From: a virus | Virus record (IMG/VR): IMGVR_UViG_3300045988_119780 | Coordinates: 1-60,388 of that record | DNA: 60,388 nt | Strand: one strand, 5' to 3' | In this document: one piece after another, positions 1,892 to 60,388 of the stretch | Position numbering within the stretch: the stretch's first letter is position 1 | How the letters are laid out: the number at the start of each line of letters is the position of its first letter | Made by a program: the position numbers and the translations under genes | Notes under the pieces: generated by a model | What the model was told of the DNA's origin: nothing | The model's database searches: none | Seen by the model: the letters and a program-made list of their open reading frames with translations, nothing else

Positions 1892-2173
1892 TTACTGTTC
1901 ACAGTATGGACACCCCCGCTTTAAATTCTTAGGGCTTAGCCATTGGTTCAATCCTACATGCTGCTCTTTACCGCAGTCCAAGCACTTTACATCTGCCCTA
2001 ATTGACAGCTTGTTAATGTCTCCAATCCCTGGATAAAGCAATTCCCAGCGACCTGCCTTCGCCTTAAACCGTCTTCTGATCTCTGCATTGTCCAGCTTGT
2101 TACGAGTACCATTTTGTGGAATGTAATACATTACAATAACTCCCTTGCTATTCTGTGATAACTTCTGCGTCAA
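1892..2173 (-). CDS. Hypothetical protein with C-terminal zinc ribbon
   Basis: CLDCG...CPYC motif pair in the C-terminal 30 aa. Confidence 0.5.
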   Translation of the reverse strand: MTQKLSQNSKGVIVMYYIPQNGTRNKLDNAEIRRRFKAKAGRWELLYPGIGDINKLSIRADVKCLDCGKEQHVGLNQWLSPKNLKRGCPYCEQ

Positions 2174-2883: not shown

Positions 2884-3166
2884 TGCTTGGCCACTTTCCG
2901 CTGATTACAGGCTTGATGAATTTCATTAGGCCATCTGTATTCCTTACACTAACGTCTTCAGTAATTGATACCGCGGTTTGCTCAATTGACAATACAATAT
3001 TTTTATTTAAGTCAATTGACCACTTCCCCATGTCCAATTGCCTGTCGCCCAGGGCCGCTTTGACGTATTTTTCTCTAATTGCATCCACTGGTTCATTGAC
3101 ATGGACTTGAATGAGTTGTCTGTCTGACTTACGGCAGAGCATTACGGTTGTTTCATAGTGTGTCAT
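2870..3166 (-). CDS. Hypothetical early protein
   Basis: 98-aa ORF overlapping the stop/start of its neighbours. Confidence 0.45.
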   Translation of the reverse strand: MTHYETTVMLCRKSDRQLIQVHVNEPVDAIREKYVKAALGDRQLDMGKWSIDLNKNIVLSIEQTAVSITEDVSVRNTDGLMKFIKPVISGKWPSSAEH

Positions 3167-3936
3167 GCAGCATTTTCTCCTAAAAGCTTGTTGATAAAGT
3201 ATTGCTGACCTTTGCCAGTAACCTTGGTAGTCTTAGTGATTCGTACTGAACCATCTGGATTAGGCGTGGTTGATTCCTTAACTTCAAACAAGCCCATATC
3301 CATTGCCTTTTGCGTTGGAGTATTCCAGCTGTCGCCTTTGCGGCTAATCAAGTATCCATTTTCACGCAGCCACTTAAAGAAGTTGTTCTGACCCATTGGC
3401 TTTGGCTTGCCTTCAACGGTCAAGTACTCGACCCCGTTTTGCTTAATGATCTTGGCAAGCACCCCGATCAAGATTGTGGTTTCTGAACTGGCTACTGAAT
3501 CAGCAAACAGTACCTTAGGCTTGGCAATTTCAAGTTGCTTTTGAGTTTCCTTGAGTGCCTTCTGCTCTTCAATCCAGCACTTAGCCCGCTCGATTGGGTC
3601 CGCAATCATGTAGCTATCTTGTTTAGTCGTAAGCTGACGTTCCATAGCGTTGAAAGCTTCAATGTATTGCAGCTTGAAGCCCATTGCCTTTGCTCCGCTA
3701 AAACCCATTGCCAACAGCGTGAACCCATCACGGTTCATATAGAACATTGGCCATTCTTGGCCACGGCTATTGATGTACGTCGATTTGACAAACATCTTTT
3801 TCACTGCGCAATTTTGTGCAGTGAGATTCTTAATGTTTCTAATTACAGTGCGATGTTCTTTTCCGAATACCTCAGCAACTTTCAAGCTAGTGGTAACAGC
3901 TTGCTGACCGTGCATAATAACTAATTCGTTCACCAT
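3163..3936 (-). CDS. Rha-type regulatory protein / antirepressor with KilAC-like C-terminal domain
   Basis: N-terminus HGQQAVTTSLKVAEVFGKEHRTVIRNIKNL..FYMNRDGFTLLAMGF is Rha-like. C-terminus KVLFADSVASSETTILIGVLAKII..FFKWLRENGYL is KilAC-like. Confidence 0.7.
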   Translation of the reverse strand: MVNELVIMHGQQAVTTSLKVAEVFGKEHRTVIRNIKNLTAQNCAVKKMFVKSTYINSRGQEWPMFYMNRDGFTLLAMGFSGAKAMGFKLQYIEAFNAMERQLTTKQDSYMIADPIERAKCWIEEQKALKETQKQLEIAKPKVLFADSVASSETTILIGVLAKIIKQNGVEYLTVEGKPKPMGQNNFFKWLRENGYLISRKGDSWNTPTQKAMDMGLFEVKESTTPNPDGSVRITKTTKVTGKGQQYFINKLLGENAA

Positions 3937-13308: not shown

Positions 13309-13696
13309 CTTACTGGAATACTTGATGAATTACGCCTTAGAGGCAGGGATTGGTGTTATCTACGATGCTACTCTACCTTCGAACGCACCATCTGTTTCTT
13401 ATGCTAAGTCTAGAATTATCATCTTAAACGGAAATTGGGCCAGGCGGTTTGAATCGCCTTTCATCTTAGCCCACGAGATAGGACACATCGTGTTACAGCA
13501 CAGATGTAGTTCTTTAGCCGCACCTACAATTAAAATAAAAATGGAACATGAAGCTGATGTGTTCGCCACTAAAATCATCTGGAATTATTCAACCCTAATC
13601 GGTGTGGAATACGACAATGTTTGCAGCTTCATGCAAGCCTTCGAAATACCTAACAGAATGTTTGAGACAGTTAGCAAATTAATGAGGGCATGCTAA
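13301..13696 (+). CDS. ImmA/IrrE-family metallopeptidase
   Basis: HEIGH zinc motif (LAHEIGHIVLQH). Overlaps the cI-like stop. Confidence 0.8.
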   Translation: MNDLLEYLMNYALEAGIGVIYDATLPSNAPSVSYAKSRIIILNGNWARRFESPFILAHEIGHIVLQHRCSSLAAPTIKIKMEHEADVFATKIIWNYSTLIGVEYDNVCSFMQAFEIPNRMFETVSKLMRAC

Positions 13697-13755
13697 AAGA
13701 GCGCCCTTACTTGCAGATAGCAAAGGCGCTTTTATTTTTCCTGGAGGAAACAACA

Positions 13756-14868
13756 ATGAAAACTTACCCAATAGGAAAGCCTAAGAAAATGAAGTCCGGC
13801 AAATACCAATGGTATCAGCGTTACCGTGACCCACTAACGGGCAAAATCAAGCGTGTGACATGTCTTCTCTCTCGTGGTAGTCAACAGGCCAGGAAGGAAG
13901 CTGAACTCATTCTAGCACAGAAATTAGCCGATATAAGCGATACTAGAACAGAAACAAATATAACCATAGGTGAGCTATCGAAACTTTTTCTAGATCACGA
14001 GAGAGAGCGTGGAGTCAAATCAACCACATTGAGCGTACGCAGGACTGGAATGTCTGCAATGCTGAAGTATTTTGGCGAGGACGCAATAGCTAAAAATATT
14101 ACTAAACCAATGGTAACCAAATATCTCCAAAGCTCTTTAAAGAAAAAGACTAATTCAACAGTCCATGTCTACCGTGTAGGTATGAGTACAATGTATGACT
14201 TTGCAATCGATTATGGATACCTGACTGAGAACCCAGCTAAAGGACTGCGCATTCAATGGAAACCGCAAAAGCCTACAAGCATTACCGACAAATACTTTAC
14301 AGATGAAGAGCTTAACAATCTATTTGCCGTTATTGATCGCCCAGATTACTTGCGGCTTTTTAAATTTATGTATCTAACTGGCATGAGATTTGGCGAAGCA
14401 ACAGGCCTGCAATTCAAAAACATTCACGATCAATACGCTGATATAACGGGTACCATGTGGGCCAATGGCATTAAATCTGATTCGCCTAAGACACTGGCTT
14501 CTTTCCGGTCCGTATTTCTGCCTAAGCAAGCCGTAGAAATAATAAAGTGGTTTAAGCAGTATGACCGAAACACTGAGCCAGATGATTTTATTTTCATCAA
14601 TCAACTAAAACATGTTCCATTTAAAATGAATACTGTTGCGCTTTATCTCAAGAATAAAAGTAGAGAAGCTGGAATAGATCGGAAAATTACTACCCACTTT
14701 TTCAGACATACCCACATCTCCAAGTTAGCTGAACAAGGCGTCCCCTTGCACGTTATTCAGAAAAGAGTTGGACACACAAAAGCGGAAACTACAAGAGAAA
14801 TTTATCTTCACGTCACTAAGAAAATGCAGGAAGACATGGAGAAACAGATCAATGATTTTTCCATTTGA
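13756..14868 (+). CDS. int: Tyrosine integrase
   Basis: C-terminal catalytic signature HFFRHTH...GHTKAETTREIYLH. GGAGGA SD before the ATG at 13756. Confidence 0.9.
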   Translation: MKTYPIGKPKKMKSGKYQWYQRYRDPLTGKIKRVTCLLSRGSQQARKEAELILAQKLADISDTRTETNITIGELSKLFLDHERERGVKSTTLSVRRTGMSAMLKYFGEDAIAKNITKPMVTKYLQSSLKKKTNSTVHVYRVGMSTMYDFAIDYGYLTENPAKGLRIQWKPQKPTSITDKYFTDEELNNLFAVIDRPDYLRLFKFMYLTGMRFGEATGLQFKNIHDQYADITGTMWANGIKSDSPKTLASFRSVFLPKQAVEIIKWFKQYDRNTEPDDFIFINQLKHVPFKMNTVALYLKNKSREAGIDRKITTHFFRHTHISKLAEQGVPLHVIQKRVGHTKAETTREIYLHVTKKMQEDMEKQINDFSI

Positions 14869-56563: not shown

Positions 56564-57007
56564 CTAGATTGGCAAATGTAGCTCTTTAGCTACATCAAAA
56601 ATAAAATCATTCCATTTCCTGTAGCCGTCTGCACGGCTTACAAGGACTTTTCCTTGCATTACTAAATCAGAAATGGTGTGTGCATTTCTCAGTCTTGACG
56701 GTTTGAAATACAGTTCTTTGCAGATTGTCTGTACTTCGTCTGGTGCCTCTTCAAAACAAGTCCGGATTGCCATGTGCTCTTGTCTTAATGCGTTCAGCCG
56801 CTTGTCTTCATCAAGCGTTACAATCCATCGTTCTTGATAAGGTGTGTTGCTGCTAGATCGACCCCCACCCACATTGTCGTCCGGCTCTACATATGGGTGC
56901 TGGAGTTCAAATCTCCGTTGCTCTACGTATTCGTCATAGTGTGGATAGTCTTCAAGCAAAGATTCAATATAGCGCTTAGCGTTTCGTTCGCGTTTTCTAA
57001 TGGACAC
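56564..57007 (-). CDS. RinA-family-like phage transcriptional activator
   Basis: 147 aa. YIESLLEDYPHYDEYVEQRRFELQHPYVEPDDNVGGGRSS is typical of RinA-type late activators, from memory. Confidence 0.45.
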   Translation of the reverse strand: MSIRKRERNAKRYIESLLEDYPHYDEYVEQRRFELQHPYVEPDDNVGGGRSSSNTPYQERWIVTLDEDKRLNALRQEHMAIRTCFEEAPDEVQTICKELYFKPSRLRNAHTISDLVMQGKVLVSRADGYRKWNDFIFDVAKELHLPI

Positions 57008-58284: not shown

Positions 58285-58305
58285 GACTGCTCCTTAAACG
58301 AAAAT

Positions 58306-58353
58306 AACCATTGTCTGGAATCGAACCAGACTTAAAGTCCTAACTTAATGGTT
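58306..58353 (-). ncRNA. tRNA-like minihelix 1 (7-bp acceptor-like stem plus canonical T-arm; no D or anticodon arms)
   Basis: Minus strand AACCATT-AAGTTAGGACTTTAAG-TCTGG-TTCGATT-CCAGA-C-AATGGTT. Confidence 0.5.
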
Positions 58354-58521
58354 TGTAGAAATGCAGGCTGATTTGTGTTACGAAAAACGTGGTTAAAATA
58401 ACGCCCCTTAGCTGCAGACGTAATTAATAAATCAACCTCTTAGCTATACCACACTCAGTCGGCAGAATGTGATACGGCTGTGCCCCGCTAAGCGTTAGCT
58501 ATCACGGCAGGGCTAAGGCAA

Positions 58522-58542
58522 GCTGGGGAGTCGAACCCCAGC
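58522..58542 (-). ncRNA. Isolated tRNA T-arm-like hairpin
   Basis: Minus strand GCTGGGG-TTCGACT-CCCCAGC. I found no matching acceptor strand. Confidence 0.4.
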
Positions 58543-58631
58543 TCACTGTGCGAAAGAGAATAGTAAAATAAAAATGCTGTTATCTATAGCTTTAGGTGAG
58601 GTAGAATGCCCAGCTGGAGGAAGCTGGGCTA

Positions 58632-58675
58632 AGTTGTGCGCTGGAATCGAACCAGCTTTCAACCGAAACACAACT
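58632..58675 (-). ncRNA. tRNA-like minihelix 3 (acceptor-like stem plus T-arm)
   Basis: Minus strand AGTTGTG-TTTCGGTTGAAA-GCTGG-TTCGATT-CCAGC-G-CACAACT, followed by hairpin GCCCAGCT..AGCTGGGC (58608-58629). Confidence 0.5.
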
Positions 58676-58734
58676 GCAATAAAAAATAATGAGATCTAGT
58701 ACTAAATTTAAATTACAGTTTACAATTTGCTGCC

Positions 58735-59022
58735 CACGGCTTTCCATACCGATCACAGCAATGCACGACCTGGGGCTTGCACCCAGCGGCTCTCTATGGT
58801 GTCGTGTCACCGATTTAGAAAGGATTTTCACTACAATCAACTACCCCCGACCGAGGTCGGAGGTTTGCAACTAGCTAGCGTGGTCCAAGCAAACTCCCCG
58901 AGGGGAGTTCTCCCATAGCCAAGCCCGAAGGCTTACGCTGTCGCTTCTCAAGCATCCTTGGCGAACCTCAGATGCTCCCGCAGGCTGACTACTACGGCAG
59001 AACAGCACGTTTACGCACTGCT
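58735..59022 (-). ncRNA. Candidate TnpB omega-RNA (reRNA) scaffold / IS right end
   Basis: At least 6 GC-rich hairpins directly 3' of the tnpB stop: GCATC..GATGC, AAGCC-TTCG-GGCTT, AACTCCCC-TCGG-GGGAGTT, CCGACC-TCG-GTCGG, and CACGAC..CTGGG..CCCAG..GTCGTG. AT-rich DNA and a T-run follow. The 5' limit probably lies inside the ORF. Confidence 0.6.
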
Positions 59023-60303
59023 CTAATTTGTTTGTTTCTTTGTTTTCTTGCCTTTGGCTTTCTTAGCATCTGTTGTATCATGCTGACTCTGATACGACGG
59101 ATTAGGCACGCCGCTGACGTACATCGTTCCCAGCATTTGAATGTTCATTGCGGCTATGCGGTCGTCATTAGAGCGGTAGCCGCATCTGTTACAGATATAC
59201 ATGTGCAGCTCATGGTCACGATTTTCTTTCAAAATCTGCCCACACTTAGGACAGCGCTGACTGGTATAGTGAGCGTCTACCTCGACAACCTCGCTGCCAT
59301 TCTGATGTGCCTTGTACTTGAGCTTTTGTTCCAGGTCATAGAAAGACCAGGAATGGTGCTCATATCTATTTTCCTTCTTACGGCTATAGACCGTATCAAA
59401 AGTTACGTCAGTAAGATCCTCAAGCACAAAGAGAGTATCAGCTCCGTAGTGGTTGACGAGTGTCTTAGACAAGCAGTGATTGTAGTCGCTCATCCAGCGG
59501 TTCTCTCGTTGACCAATCTTGCGAATGCGTCTCTTTGAGTTTCTGGTATTTGTCATCTGCAGATGACGTCTCAGCTCTTTATAGTGCTGACGCTTTCTGG
59601 CAATCGTCTTCCCGTTGTGGAAGAAAGTTTTGCCTTTTTCGTCATAGCAGGTAACGATCTGGCGAAGTCCTCTGTCAACCCCAACTACATGACGAGTCTG
59701 CTCAATCTCGTAATCTGGAAAAGACTTGGTTGCGCTGATATGCATAAACCAGTGCTTGCCAGATCTAAGGATTTTGGCAGTGCCAAAAGTCCATTCGTCA
59801 TCCAGATATTTTTCAAAGCCTGGCATGGCAATTTCGCATTCAATCCGCCCGTTAAGGGTATTGACAGACACGATCTTGCCATTCTGCTTGAAGGAATAAT
59901 CCCGATCTCTTACTTCATCCAATTGCGGACGCTTGAAAAAAATCGGCTCCCAAAGCCAGTCAAGATCACGTTGGACAGTGTAGTAGCCCTTGTCTTTCGG
60001 TGCATTGATGTCGTGAAATTTATAAGGCTTCTGACCAAGCTGCGTTTTAACAGACTTGTATCTGGCGATAACGGTCTTCAAGACAGACTGAGCCATTTGT
60101 GATCTGAGGTTGAATTTTTGTCGTAAGTCAGAGTAGACAGCTTTGTTCAGCTTTGCTTGGCCGAGTTCAAAGTCATGCTCAAAAATGTATTCAGATGCAA
60201 AATTACAACCTTGTCTATAAGCTTCCATGCTGTCTATCAGTGATTTAGCATTTTCGGAACTGGCAACTTTGATGTGAGCTTTAATAGTCAAAGAAATATC
60301 CAT
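59023..60303 (-). CDS. tnpB: TnpB RNA-guided endonuclease (IS200/IS605 family)
   Basis: RuvC triad contexts VGVDRG, FVLEDL and SNDDRIAAMNI. Zinc finger CPKCG...CNRCG. Start at MDISLTIK with a GAAGGGAGG SD. Confidence 0.9.
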   Translation of the reverse strand: MDISLTIKAHIKVASSENAKSLIDSMEAYRQGCNFASEYIFEHDFELGQAKLNKAVYSDLRQKFNLRSQMAQSVLKTVIARYKSVKTQLGQKPYKFHDINAPKDKGYYTVQRDLDWLWEPIFFKRPQLDEVRDRDYSFKQNGKIVSVNTLNGRIECEIAMPGFEKYLDDEWTFGTAKILRSGKHWFMHISATKSFPDYEIEQTRHVVGVDRGLRQIVTCYDEKGKTFFHNGKTIARKRQHYKELRRHLQMTNTRNSKRRIRKIGQRENRWMSDYNHCLSKTLVNHYGADTLFVLEDLTDVTFDTVYSRKKENRYEHHSWSFYDLEQKLKYKAHQNGSEVVEVDAHYTSQRCPKCGQILKENRDHELHMYICNRCGYRSNDDRIAAMNIQMLGTMYVSGVPNPSYQSQHDTTDAKKAKGKKTKKQTN

Positions 60304-60327
60304 GATTTGCCTCCCTTCACTAAAAAT

Positions 60328-60336
60328 AGCATACCA
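60328..60336 (-). promoter_or_regulatory. Extended -10 TGGTATGCT upstream of tnpB
   Basis: Minus strand TTTTTGTGGTATGCTATTTTTAGTGAAGGGAGG. Confidence 0.4.
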
Positions 60337-60388
60337 CAAAAACTAGTGATATAGGAGGCTAGACTACCGAATATCTAACAATCAGAAA

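Follow-up and report, generated by a model that had tools for sequence, protein, structure and literature searches.

This report concerns a non-coding stretch near the end of a 60,388-nt viral DNA (IMG/VR record IMGVR_UViG_3300045988_119780, positions 1-60,388), referred to below as the window. Gene order at this end is TnpB (60303-59023), omega-RNA, the non-coding stretch and an open reading frame (ORF) of 75 aa (58284-58057), all on the minus strand, on which all array coordinates are read. In phages of Lactobacillus delbrueckii the region forms a conserved locus for a structured non-coding RNA, made of several half-tRNA mimics that combine an acceptor with a T-arm, each with a G+C-rich hairpin after it. 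We call the ensemble the array and its mimics the units M0, U1, U2 and U3 (Table 1); other loci are given L numbers.

The locus and its units

Comparison with phage JCL1032, which matches the window on both sides of the array region, sets the limits of the locus. Homology starts at window position 58837, and TnpB is absent at the JCL1032 array site, where the array is intact and uninterrupted. Since TnpB-free relatives carry the array, we conclude that the insertion sequence (IS) element inserted into a pre-existing locus at 58837/58838; it sits in the 5′ part of the phage non-coding locus, in the same orientation as the array. The phage-owned non-coding part therefore runs from 58837 to 58285 and does not begin at 58700, as an initial annotation made from the window alone had it. 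The first bases flanking the IS element, where a guide would be read, are ATTGTAGTGAAAATCC (58837-58822). That annotation also called the stretch ORF-free, which holds insofar as no ORF of at least 40 aa is conserved across array variants and L207 and L208 have none, but not literally, as mechanically called ORFs of 41-82 aa exist. The locus is embedded in a row of genes on its own strand, and an intrinsic terminator is seen only after the last unit, U3, in L003 and L011.

Among the explanations first offered were scars of attachment (att) sites, that is, copies of host tRNA 3′ ends, and processing signals for the TnpB omega-RNA. A T-arm with its 3′ acceptor strand is the segment that a tRNA-targeting integrase duplicates, and the array directly abuts the omega-RNA. 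The units, however, have 5′ strands of their own (that of U2 covaries), their acceptors are A/U-rich and begin with A, and the integrase gene (13690-14868) is 44 kb from the array. LL-H, a virulent phage, also carries the array, and it shares with JCL1032, L003, L011, L207 and L208 the lack of an adjoining TnpB. Both proposals are set aside, with next to no probability left to either.

Direct reading confirmed the three canonical minus-strand T-arms that had been reported. U1, U2 and U3 each show a 5-bp stem, the G53-C61 pair and T54-T55-C56-R57-A58 in the form GG-TTCGAYT-CC, and in each a 7-bp acceptor abuts the T stem, 5 + 7 giving 12 positions (one mismatch each in U2 and U3). U1 combines the acceptor GTTGTGT/GCACAAC and an A(-1):U73 pair with a D-loop-like mini-hairpin (TTC-GGTT-GAA) and the T-arm GCTGG-TTCGATT-CCAGC; the corresponding parts of U3 are ACCATTA/CAATGGT with an A:U pair, AGT-TAGG-ACT and TCTGG-TTCGATT-CCAGA. 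Both fold as a three-way junction of acceptor, 3-bp mini-hairpin with a GG-containing tetraloop, and T-arm, and the acceptor-like stems described as closing these two T-arms are indeed there, with 7-8 bp. U2 is a plain hairpin; its T-arm had been recorded correctly, but the full 11-bp helix with a terminal A.C had been missed. M0, a fourth unit of the same build with the loop TGCAAGC, lies upstream of the range first described. The hairpins and AGCTAAGRGG boxes listed there are present as described.

The units are acceptor/T-arm mimics without an anticodon arm, and the statement that no full cloverleaf can be built around them stands: only 0-16 nt separate acceptor from T stem, ARAGORN returned neither a tRNA nor a tmRNA in the window, and no Rfam family matched at its gathering score there. 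Between 58000 and 59200, Rfam searches at E ≤ 10 gave only noise, the tRNA model remaining unmatched even at that level. Identity as a tRNA gene was rejected on these grounds, as was identity as a tmRNA, for which the ARAGORN search was negative, the acceptor strands lie too close to the T stem (0-16 nt) and no ORF is conserved. ROOL (RF03087) and GOLLD gave no window match at the gathering score or at E ≤ 10, whereas the same search does detect ROOL in L172 and L214. No Pfam match to Ro60/TROVE was obtained among the five downstream ORFs and TnpB, the remainder of the window not having been searched for rsr.

Chance does not produce such features at this frequency. The pattern GGTTCGATTCCAG-N9-T has two matches against 0.02 expected, and GGTTCRAYTCC-N10-WTAGSSC two against 0.00. 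A T-arm scan placed the four minus-strand units within 500 nt, with no comparable cluster elsewhere in the 60-kb window. Single-unit folds take the predicted shapes, with z = -2.9 (U1), -3.8 (U2), -2.8 (U3) and -4.8 (H1). On the 3′ side of U3 a U-rich tract is followed by the ribosome-binding site of the 75-aa ORF.

Table 1. Features of the array and its surroundings (window positions unless a locus is named)
Feature	Coordinates	Strand	Description and basis
Whole phage non-coding array	58285..58837	-	From the first base common to TnpB-free JCL1032 to the last base before the ATG of the 75-aa ORF; JCL1032 and nine-variant alignments
IS605-type insertion (TnpB gene and omega-RNA)	58838..60339	-	Abuts the array but is not part of it; Pfam OrfB_IS605 and Cas12f1-like_TNB; missing at the JCL1032 site
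Unit M0	58807-58763	-	6-7 bp acceptor-like stem ACACGAC/GTCGTGC, 14-nt linker with CATAGAG, 5-bp stem CTGGG/CCCAG, 7-nt loop
Hairpin TTGCTG...CAGCAA	58727..58761	-	One base after M0
Unit U1 (linker type)	58675-58632	-	AGTTGTG(T)-TTC GGTT GAA-A-GCTGG TTCGATT CCAGC-(G)CACAACT
Hairpin H1	58629-58608	-	DNA GCCCAGCT-TCCTCC-AGCTGGGC; RNA GCCCAGCT-UCCUCC-AGCUGGGC; begins at position 76 after U1
234-nt module (AU-rich spacer, U2 and cargo)	58590-58357	-	Missing in JCL1032 (alignment A1); present in L003, L011, L207, L208
Unit U2 (continuous type)	58547-58517	-	AGTGAGCTGGGG TTCGACT CCCCAGCTTGCC; unbroken, 12 positions with the terminal A.C
Proposed cargo domain between U2 and U3	58355..58515	-	RNAalifold and pair counts, alignment A2
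H2a	58513-58482	-	Within cargo domain; pairing kept through G-U
Hairpin GCTAA-CGC-TTAGC	58499-58487	-	Sequence read directly
H2b	58479-58442	-	Within cargo domain; loop CUGCCG; 5 pairs changed on both sides
H2c long-range helix	58438-58432 with 58371-58365	-	Within cargo domain; 1 pair changed on both sides
Unit U3 (linker type)	58354-58305	-	AACCATT-A-AGT TAGG ACT-TTAAG-TCTGG TTCGATT CCAGA-C-AATGGTT
Motif U-rich-(A/C)CUCCAAA-N5-8-UUUAGC	L003 ~3706-3735; L209 ~1037-1060; L214 ~1962-1990		Also in L207, L208, L015 and L011, between M0 and U1

Covariation and modularity in related phages

Relatives of the 75-aa ORF form only four protein clusters, and in IMG/VR they come from JCL1032 alone. Variants were taken from metagenomic contigs encoding such relatives, plus two loci from one metagenome scan with the U3 22-mer; together they give some nine different forms of the intergenic region. 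In every case where the upstream gene can be seen (JCL1032, L003-L008, L207 and L208), the array lies directly 3′ of a homologue of JCL1032 ORF57, an annotated transcriptional activator. Two JCL1032 ORFs annotated as hypothetical proteins, ORF59 (L001 3203-3382) and ORF58 (3404-3523), run on the plus strand of that locus, opposite to the RNA, and are probably spurious because they are not conserved in the variants.

Conservation with covariation in related phages had been proposed as a check on the units, and it was obtained. Seven versions of the U2-to-U3 segment were aligned by sequence only (alignment A2), and RNAalifold predicts 54 pairs for them, with 96.5% of cells paired. Fourteen of these pairs are changed on both sides, against 6.6 +/- 1.7 in shuffles (0/500 shuffles reach 14), while sliding the structure by 1-3 columns leaves at most two. 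In U2, 7/11 pairs have changed on both sides: the stem is GTGAGCTGGGG in the window, AGCAAGTTAGGG in L011 and CTGTGTGTCGG in L003, around a loop TTCRACT that is unchanged throughout. More generally, the stem sequences are replaced entirely, whereas GGTTCRAYTCC does not vary. No variant alters the U3 acceptor, so that covariation speaks neither for nor against its pairing, and the U1 acceptor shows a single type of change, U.G to U-A, in L011 and L015, its linker keeping YGGU. The tail of the cargo domain, CAUUUCUACA, is conserved. Units and intervening hairpins are shown to be conserved, phage-specific RNA structures, and many strand-specific G-U pairs identify the minus strand of the window as the RNA strand.

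That strand specificity, with the tRNA-type loop consensus, also bears on whether the element might act as DNA, its hairpins being incidental to a cluster of binding sites, a late promoter region, a pac or ori site or a recombination hotspot. Its place between the late-activator gene and the next operon would suit such a role, and so would deletions mediated by repeated CTTAGCC motifs and a conserved upstream palindrome, GTACTCATATGAGTAC. Stem sequences nevertheless change freely, unlike those of a protein-binding DNA site, and we regard this explanation as very improbable. The palindrome itself is perfect and lies about 130 nt upstream of M0 (L001/JCL1032 3516-3501); it is also found in L011, L207 and L208, and its window equivalent falls beyond the TnpB insertion, off the window end. 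A function as operator or activator site of the transcript is possible.

Units are gained, lost and exchanged as modules, as the variants show directly. JCL1032 is without U2 and cargo, L003 is without M0, U1 and H1, and L011 and L015 carry an extra unit. L007 and L008 have lost 19 nt between GCTTAGCC repeats. Whole-module indels end in the repeated CTTAGCC trailer (L007/L008 relative to L003 ~3770-3790; the window relative to L011, between U1 and H1), and the conserved trailer is therefore a recombination substrate as well. H1 has counterparts in L011 (GCCCGGTT/AGCCGGGC) and in the LL-H-like L143 (GCCCAGG/CCTGGGC).

In LL-H (L209, phage record 205-1228) an unannotated gap of about 1 kb, from the activator gene to terS, holds at least six units and closes with a terminator just 5′ of the terS ribosome-binding site. 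Its M0 equivalent has an acceptor, GCATGGC/GCCATGC, and a stem, CGGAG/CTCCG, that differ from those of the window yet pair, with the linker CATAGAG and the loop TGCAAG retained. One LL-H unit has its acceptor strands about 80 nt apart (AGCTGGT...ACCAGCT). Groups a and c of the L. delbrueckii phages share the position of the array; no unit was found in the group-b phage c5.

Whether the array could instead be one ornate RNA of about 550 nt, a functional cousin of ROOL and GOLLD in which the T-loops serve as tertiary-contact modules and not as cleavage signals, is a question on which this modularity bears. The whole array (58285-58837, minus strand) does fold better than shuffles, with a minimum free energy z = -3.4, it contains the long-range helix H2c, and it occupies a niche like that of ROOL and GOLLD, in phage non-coding islands near tRNAs (PMC5737381, PMC12286853). 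The presence or absence of whole modules between close relatives, however, is hard to fit to one globular fold. The loops, moreover, keep the full tRNA consensus (G53, T54, T55, C56, A58, C61), which goes beyond the looser structural T-loop motif, and neither ROOL nor GOLLD matches in Rfam. We consider a single ornate RNA rather unlikely.

The unit signature in other phages

The common build of the units is GGTTCRAYTCC, ten bases completing a 12-position helix (5-bp T stem and 7-bp acceptor), one base, and UAG, whose G opens a GCCC...GGGC hairpin. The helix has 12 positions in the units of the window, L003, L011, L015, LL-H and phiJB. Two types occur, one a continuous hairpin and the other with a linker of 8-17 nt (usually containing YGGU) between acceptor and T stem, and positional homologues switch between them, as in LL-H and L143.

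Signature scans of IMG/VR gave 70 matches in 67 loci, one group of which corresponds to the L. delbrueckii phages LL-H and phiJB. The matches represent 48 distinct contexts of the N-TAGCCC trailer, including 33 well-formed T-arms that ARAGORN does not call tRNA and seven real tRNAs or tmRNAs. A composition-matched control hexamer, CACTGC, gave 18 contexts with eight tRNAs and a single orphan T-arm. The hairpin is closed by GGGY within 32 nt in 60% of matches; random windows show this in 12.8%. Orphan T-arms reach 28 per 100 kb in L. delbrueckii phage loci and 1.1 per 100 kb in 1.07 Mb of unrelated viral contigs, the latter being loci L018-L136 from exact-pattern scans. Those scans, made with AGCCCTGCCGTGAT and AACCATTAAGTTAGGAC, returned only chance or coding matches, JCL1032 excepted, and blastn searches with the arrays of other phages gave no information when run against the annotated phage collection. 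Across 596 Gb of cellular genomes only 44 signature matches were obtained; about half of them are true tRNAs or tmRNAs and most others have no proper T stem, well-formed non-tRNA units coming mainly from Lactobacillaceae.

CCA is encoded in 0/88 orphan units and in 0/47 ARAGORN tRNAs of these phage loci, and position 74 is U in 82% of units and in 74% of the genuine tRNAs of these phages. Genuine CCA-less tRNAs in the unrelated phage contigs L142, L161, L187, L248 and L153 have a near-identical trailer, for example N-UAG-CCCGUAUGGGUGAA, which makes the UAG-CCC hairpin common to real phage tRNAs and mimics.

Such trailers would be expected if the units were functionless relics of phage tRNA genes that had lost their D and anticodon arms. 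The units also sit within tRNA clusters in other phages, where they grade into aberrant tRNA-like genes, and genuine tRNAs are flanked by units in L141, L149 and L152. Degenerate phage tRNA genes, one of the origins suggested at first, are thus plausible as a source. Simple decay is another matter: compensatory substitutions keep the helices, the T-loops are invariant across diverged phages, the array holds its position in phage groups a and c, and the UAGCCC-hairpin association is 33 to 1 over control. The units are maintained by selection, and we find it quite improbable that they are mere relics.

A connection with ROOL, likewise suggested beforehand, holds outside the window, although neither ROOL nor GOLLD lies within it. 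RF03087 matches two Lactobacillus loci, L172 675-1247 (-) with 160 bits and L214 2419-3032 (+) with 154 bits, and in both contigs ROOL is preceded, at a distance of about 200-400 nt, by two minihelix or tRNA-like units of the same build and has tRNAs on its 3′ side. In L214 the tRNA at 3023-3094 overlaps the ROOL end, as if tRNA processing set the ends of ROOL.

A possible role in RNA processing

tRNA enzymes that act regardless of sequence recognise precisely the two features conserved in the units, the 12-bp stack of acceptor and T stem and a complete tRNA T-loop. In Firmicutes, precursors that lack CCA are cleaved behind the discriminator by RNase Z, an enzyme that CCA blocks, and can also be processed by RNase P (PMC1874595, PMC8549757). 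From these conserved features, the CCA-less U74 context and the precedents of t-elements and Y RNAs, we infer that the units are punctuation. Processing punctuation was among the functions first proposed, for the omega-RNA or for a larger RNA, and the second version is the one that fits the anatomy best, the first being contradicted by TnpB-free relatives that carry the array. The reading that we favour, tentatively and at slightly less than an even chance, is that the array is t-element-like punctuation from which host tRNA-processing enzymes cut out small structured RNAs that are stabilised by the hairpins.

Host RNase P would cut on the 5′ side of the units and RNase Z after the discriminator-like base, and CCA may then be added to the freed minihelix. 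The hairpin two bases from the new 5′-monophosphate end would shield the downstream product from 5′-exonuclease, much as 5′-stabilisers do in Bacillus. The stable RNAs freed in this way could include the U2-U3 domain of about 160 nt and the hairpin with the UCCUCC loop that follows U1, perhaps also the downstream ORF's mRNA. A role based on aminoacylation identity was discarded: the acceptors share neither G3:U70 nor any other identity element, and stem sequences vary freely.

Several points weigh against this reading, of which the first is that every processing step in it is inferred. Covariation for U1 and U3, the two minihelices singled out by the initial annotation, is weak within this phage group. 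The fold of M0 is no better than shuffles (z = -0.1) and its loop is non-canonical. Position 1 of the units is usually A, often in an A.C mismatch with position 72, and bacterial RNase P favours a G+1/U-1 context. Continuous-type units have no D-loop partner in cis, so that the elbow sensed by RNase P is incomplete. The specificity of the UAG-CCC trailer is unexplained by RNase Z alone. Lastly, in L003, L011 and LL-H an intrinsic terminator closes the array ahead of the next gene, and separating the downstream mRNA is therefore not its general purpose.

The conserved features are solely those that sequence-independent tRNA binders read, and the units could be decoys: acceptor/T minihelices, freed or embedded, that titrate a tRNA-binding factor and so protect or re-programme the tRNA pool during infection. 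Candidate targets are a host toxin attacking tRNA acceptor ends, RNase P, RNase Z, the CCA-adding enzyme or EF-Tu. A sponge would fit both the multiple copies that a phage carries, at least six in LL-H, and the phage-specific distribution. The units have no anticodon loop, however, which excludes anticodon nucleases and narrows the early proposal of decoys for tRNA-targeting nucleases to its acceptor-end form; no defence or toxin gene is linked to the array; and a decoy leaves unexplained both the conserved hairpin exactly 3 nt after the helix and the conserved cargo domain. We consider this unlikely as the main function, although freed, CCA-tailed minihelices might additionally act as decoys for factors that target tRNA acceptor ends.

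A broader proposal, which we put forward as possible but somewhat unlikely, is that phages infecting Lactobacillaceae and other hosts have a dedicated, previously undescribed device, a top-half tRNA mimic plus a UAG-GCCC clamp hairpin arranged in arrays. Through it, RNase P, RNase Z and the CCA-adding enzyme of the host would be brought in to excise defined, exonuclease-resistant structured RNAs (new U2-U3-like domains, perhaps ROOL-class RNAs) from long non-coding transcripts.

The closest relatives in kind are the plant mitochondrial t-elements, which were found with a GGTTCRANYCC motif, are cut by RNase P and RNase Z and carry non-encoded C or CCA (Forner et al. 2007, PMC1920247). Phage units and t-elements alike are non-decoding tRNA-like folds with a perfectly conserved GGTTCRANYCC T-arm and an acceptor-like stem within longer transcripts, the phage transcript being predicted. 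The t-elements, however, stand singly beside the ends of organelle mRNAs, whereas phage units form tandem arrays in which many are cut down to a plain 12-bp hairpin, each coupled to an N-UAG-GCCC hairpin; and cleavage is established for t-elements but predicted for phage units. In vivo, RNase P cleaves the tRNA-like domain of Mycobacterium smegmatis YrlA, whose acceptor has 7 bp, and CCA is added to it; YrlA-like RNAs are present in phages too (Chen et al. 2014, PMC4201824). Like the units, YrlA has an acceptor, a T-arm and a D-loop mimic and no functional anticodon. It is, on the other hand, a single RNA encoded next to rsr, with a Ro60/Rsr-binding stem; the phage units have neither such a stem nor an Rfam match, and they are arrayed with trailing hairpins. 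The array shares its niche with ROOL and GOLLD but is modular and variable, not one conserved fold, and no covariance model matches it.

Cleavage that defines the end of a cargo RNA has eukaryotic precedents as well. In the TMER transcripts of murine gammaherpesvirus 68 (MHV68), a viral tRNA-like structure lies directly beside hairpins, and RNase Z or RNase P cleavage defines the cargo end. In the MALAT1/mascRNA 3′ module a tRNA-like structure adjoins a structured RNA, with cleavage again defining the cargo end. Both are full or near-full cloverleaves, TMERs depend on RNA polymerase III promoters, and neither has a sequence relationship to the phage units. Among bacteriophages, host RNase P recognises a tRNA-like acceptor/T structure in the precursor of the C4 antisense regulatory RNA of P1 and P7 and thereby frees the RNA; C4 differs in being a single element of enterobacterial phages, not arrayed, and lacks both canonical T-loop repeats and a trailing GCCC hairpin. 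We found no description of units like those of the array in the phage literature. The novelty lies in their occurrence in phages, their arrangement in arrays and the clamp hairpin coupled to them; tRNA-like processing elements are of a known kind.

Should RNase P and RNase Z cut the units, phages would be using tRNA mimicry as a general signal for RNA maturation and not for decoding, a principle so far documented mainly in organelles and eukaryotic viruses. The favoured reading, if true, would give a testable handle on the maturation of phage non-coding islands that hold tRNAs, ROOL and GOLLD, and would define as new stable phage RNAs the U2-U3 domain and the hairpin with the UCCUCC loop. It would also explain some 0.5-1 kb of sequence that is unannotated in LL-H and JCL1032, both classic dairy phages, the probably spurious ORFs included. 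Being short and sequence-tolerant, the unit could serve as a processing cassette in lactic acid bacteria, and the device, if real, would be a natural counterpart to engineered tRNA-gRNA arrays.

A few minor observations complete the description. The U-rich-(A/C)CUCCAAA-N5-8-UUUAGC motif recurs before units, and in L207, L208 and L011 it lies in a hairpin loop on wholly different stems, GTAGTAGTGTT/AACACTACTAC and GCGGGAA/TTCCCGC. The idea that 'ACCUCC' tracts are reverse-strand ribosome-binding sites was dropped, as no start codon follows them, and so was a long-range CUUAGC/GCUAAG pairing, of which L011 has neither half. At window position 56906 (+), on the strand opposite to the array, a T-arm-like sequence, CTGGAG-TTCAAAT-CTCCG, falls inside a 147-aa gene (56564-57007); it is kept in relatives presumably because it is coding, and is likely a chance match. 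Finally, a Twister-P5 ribozyme (RF02684, 53 bits) lies at L161 3939-3992 (-), in one of the phage contigs whose tRNAs have the UAGCCC trailer.

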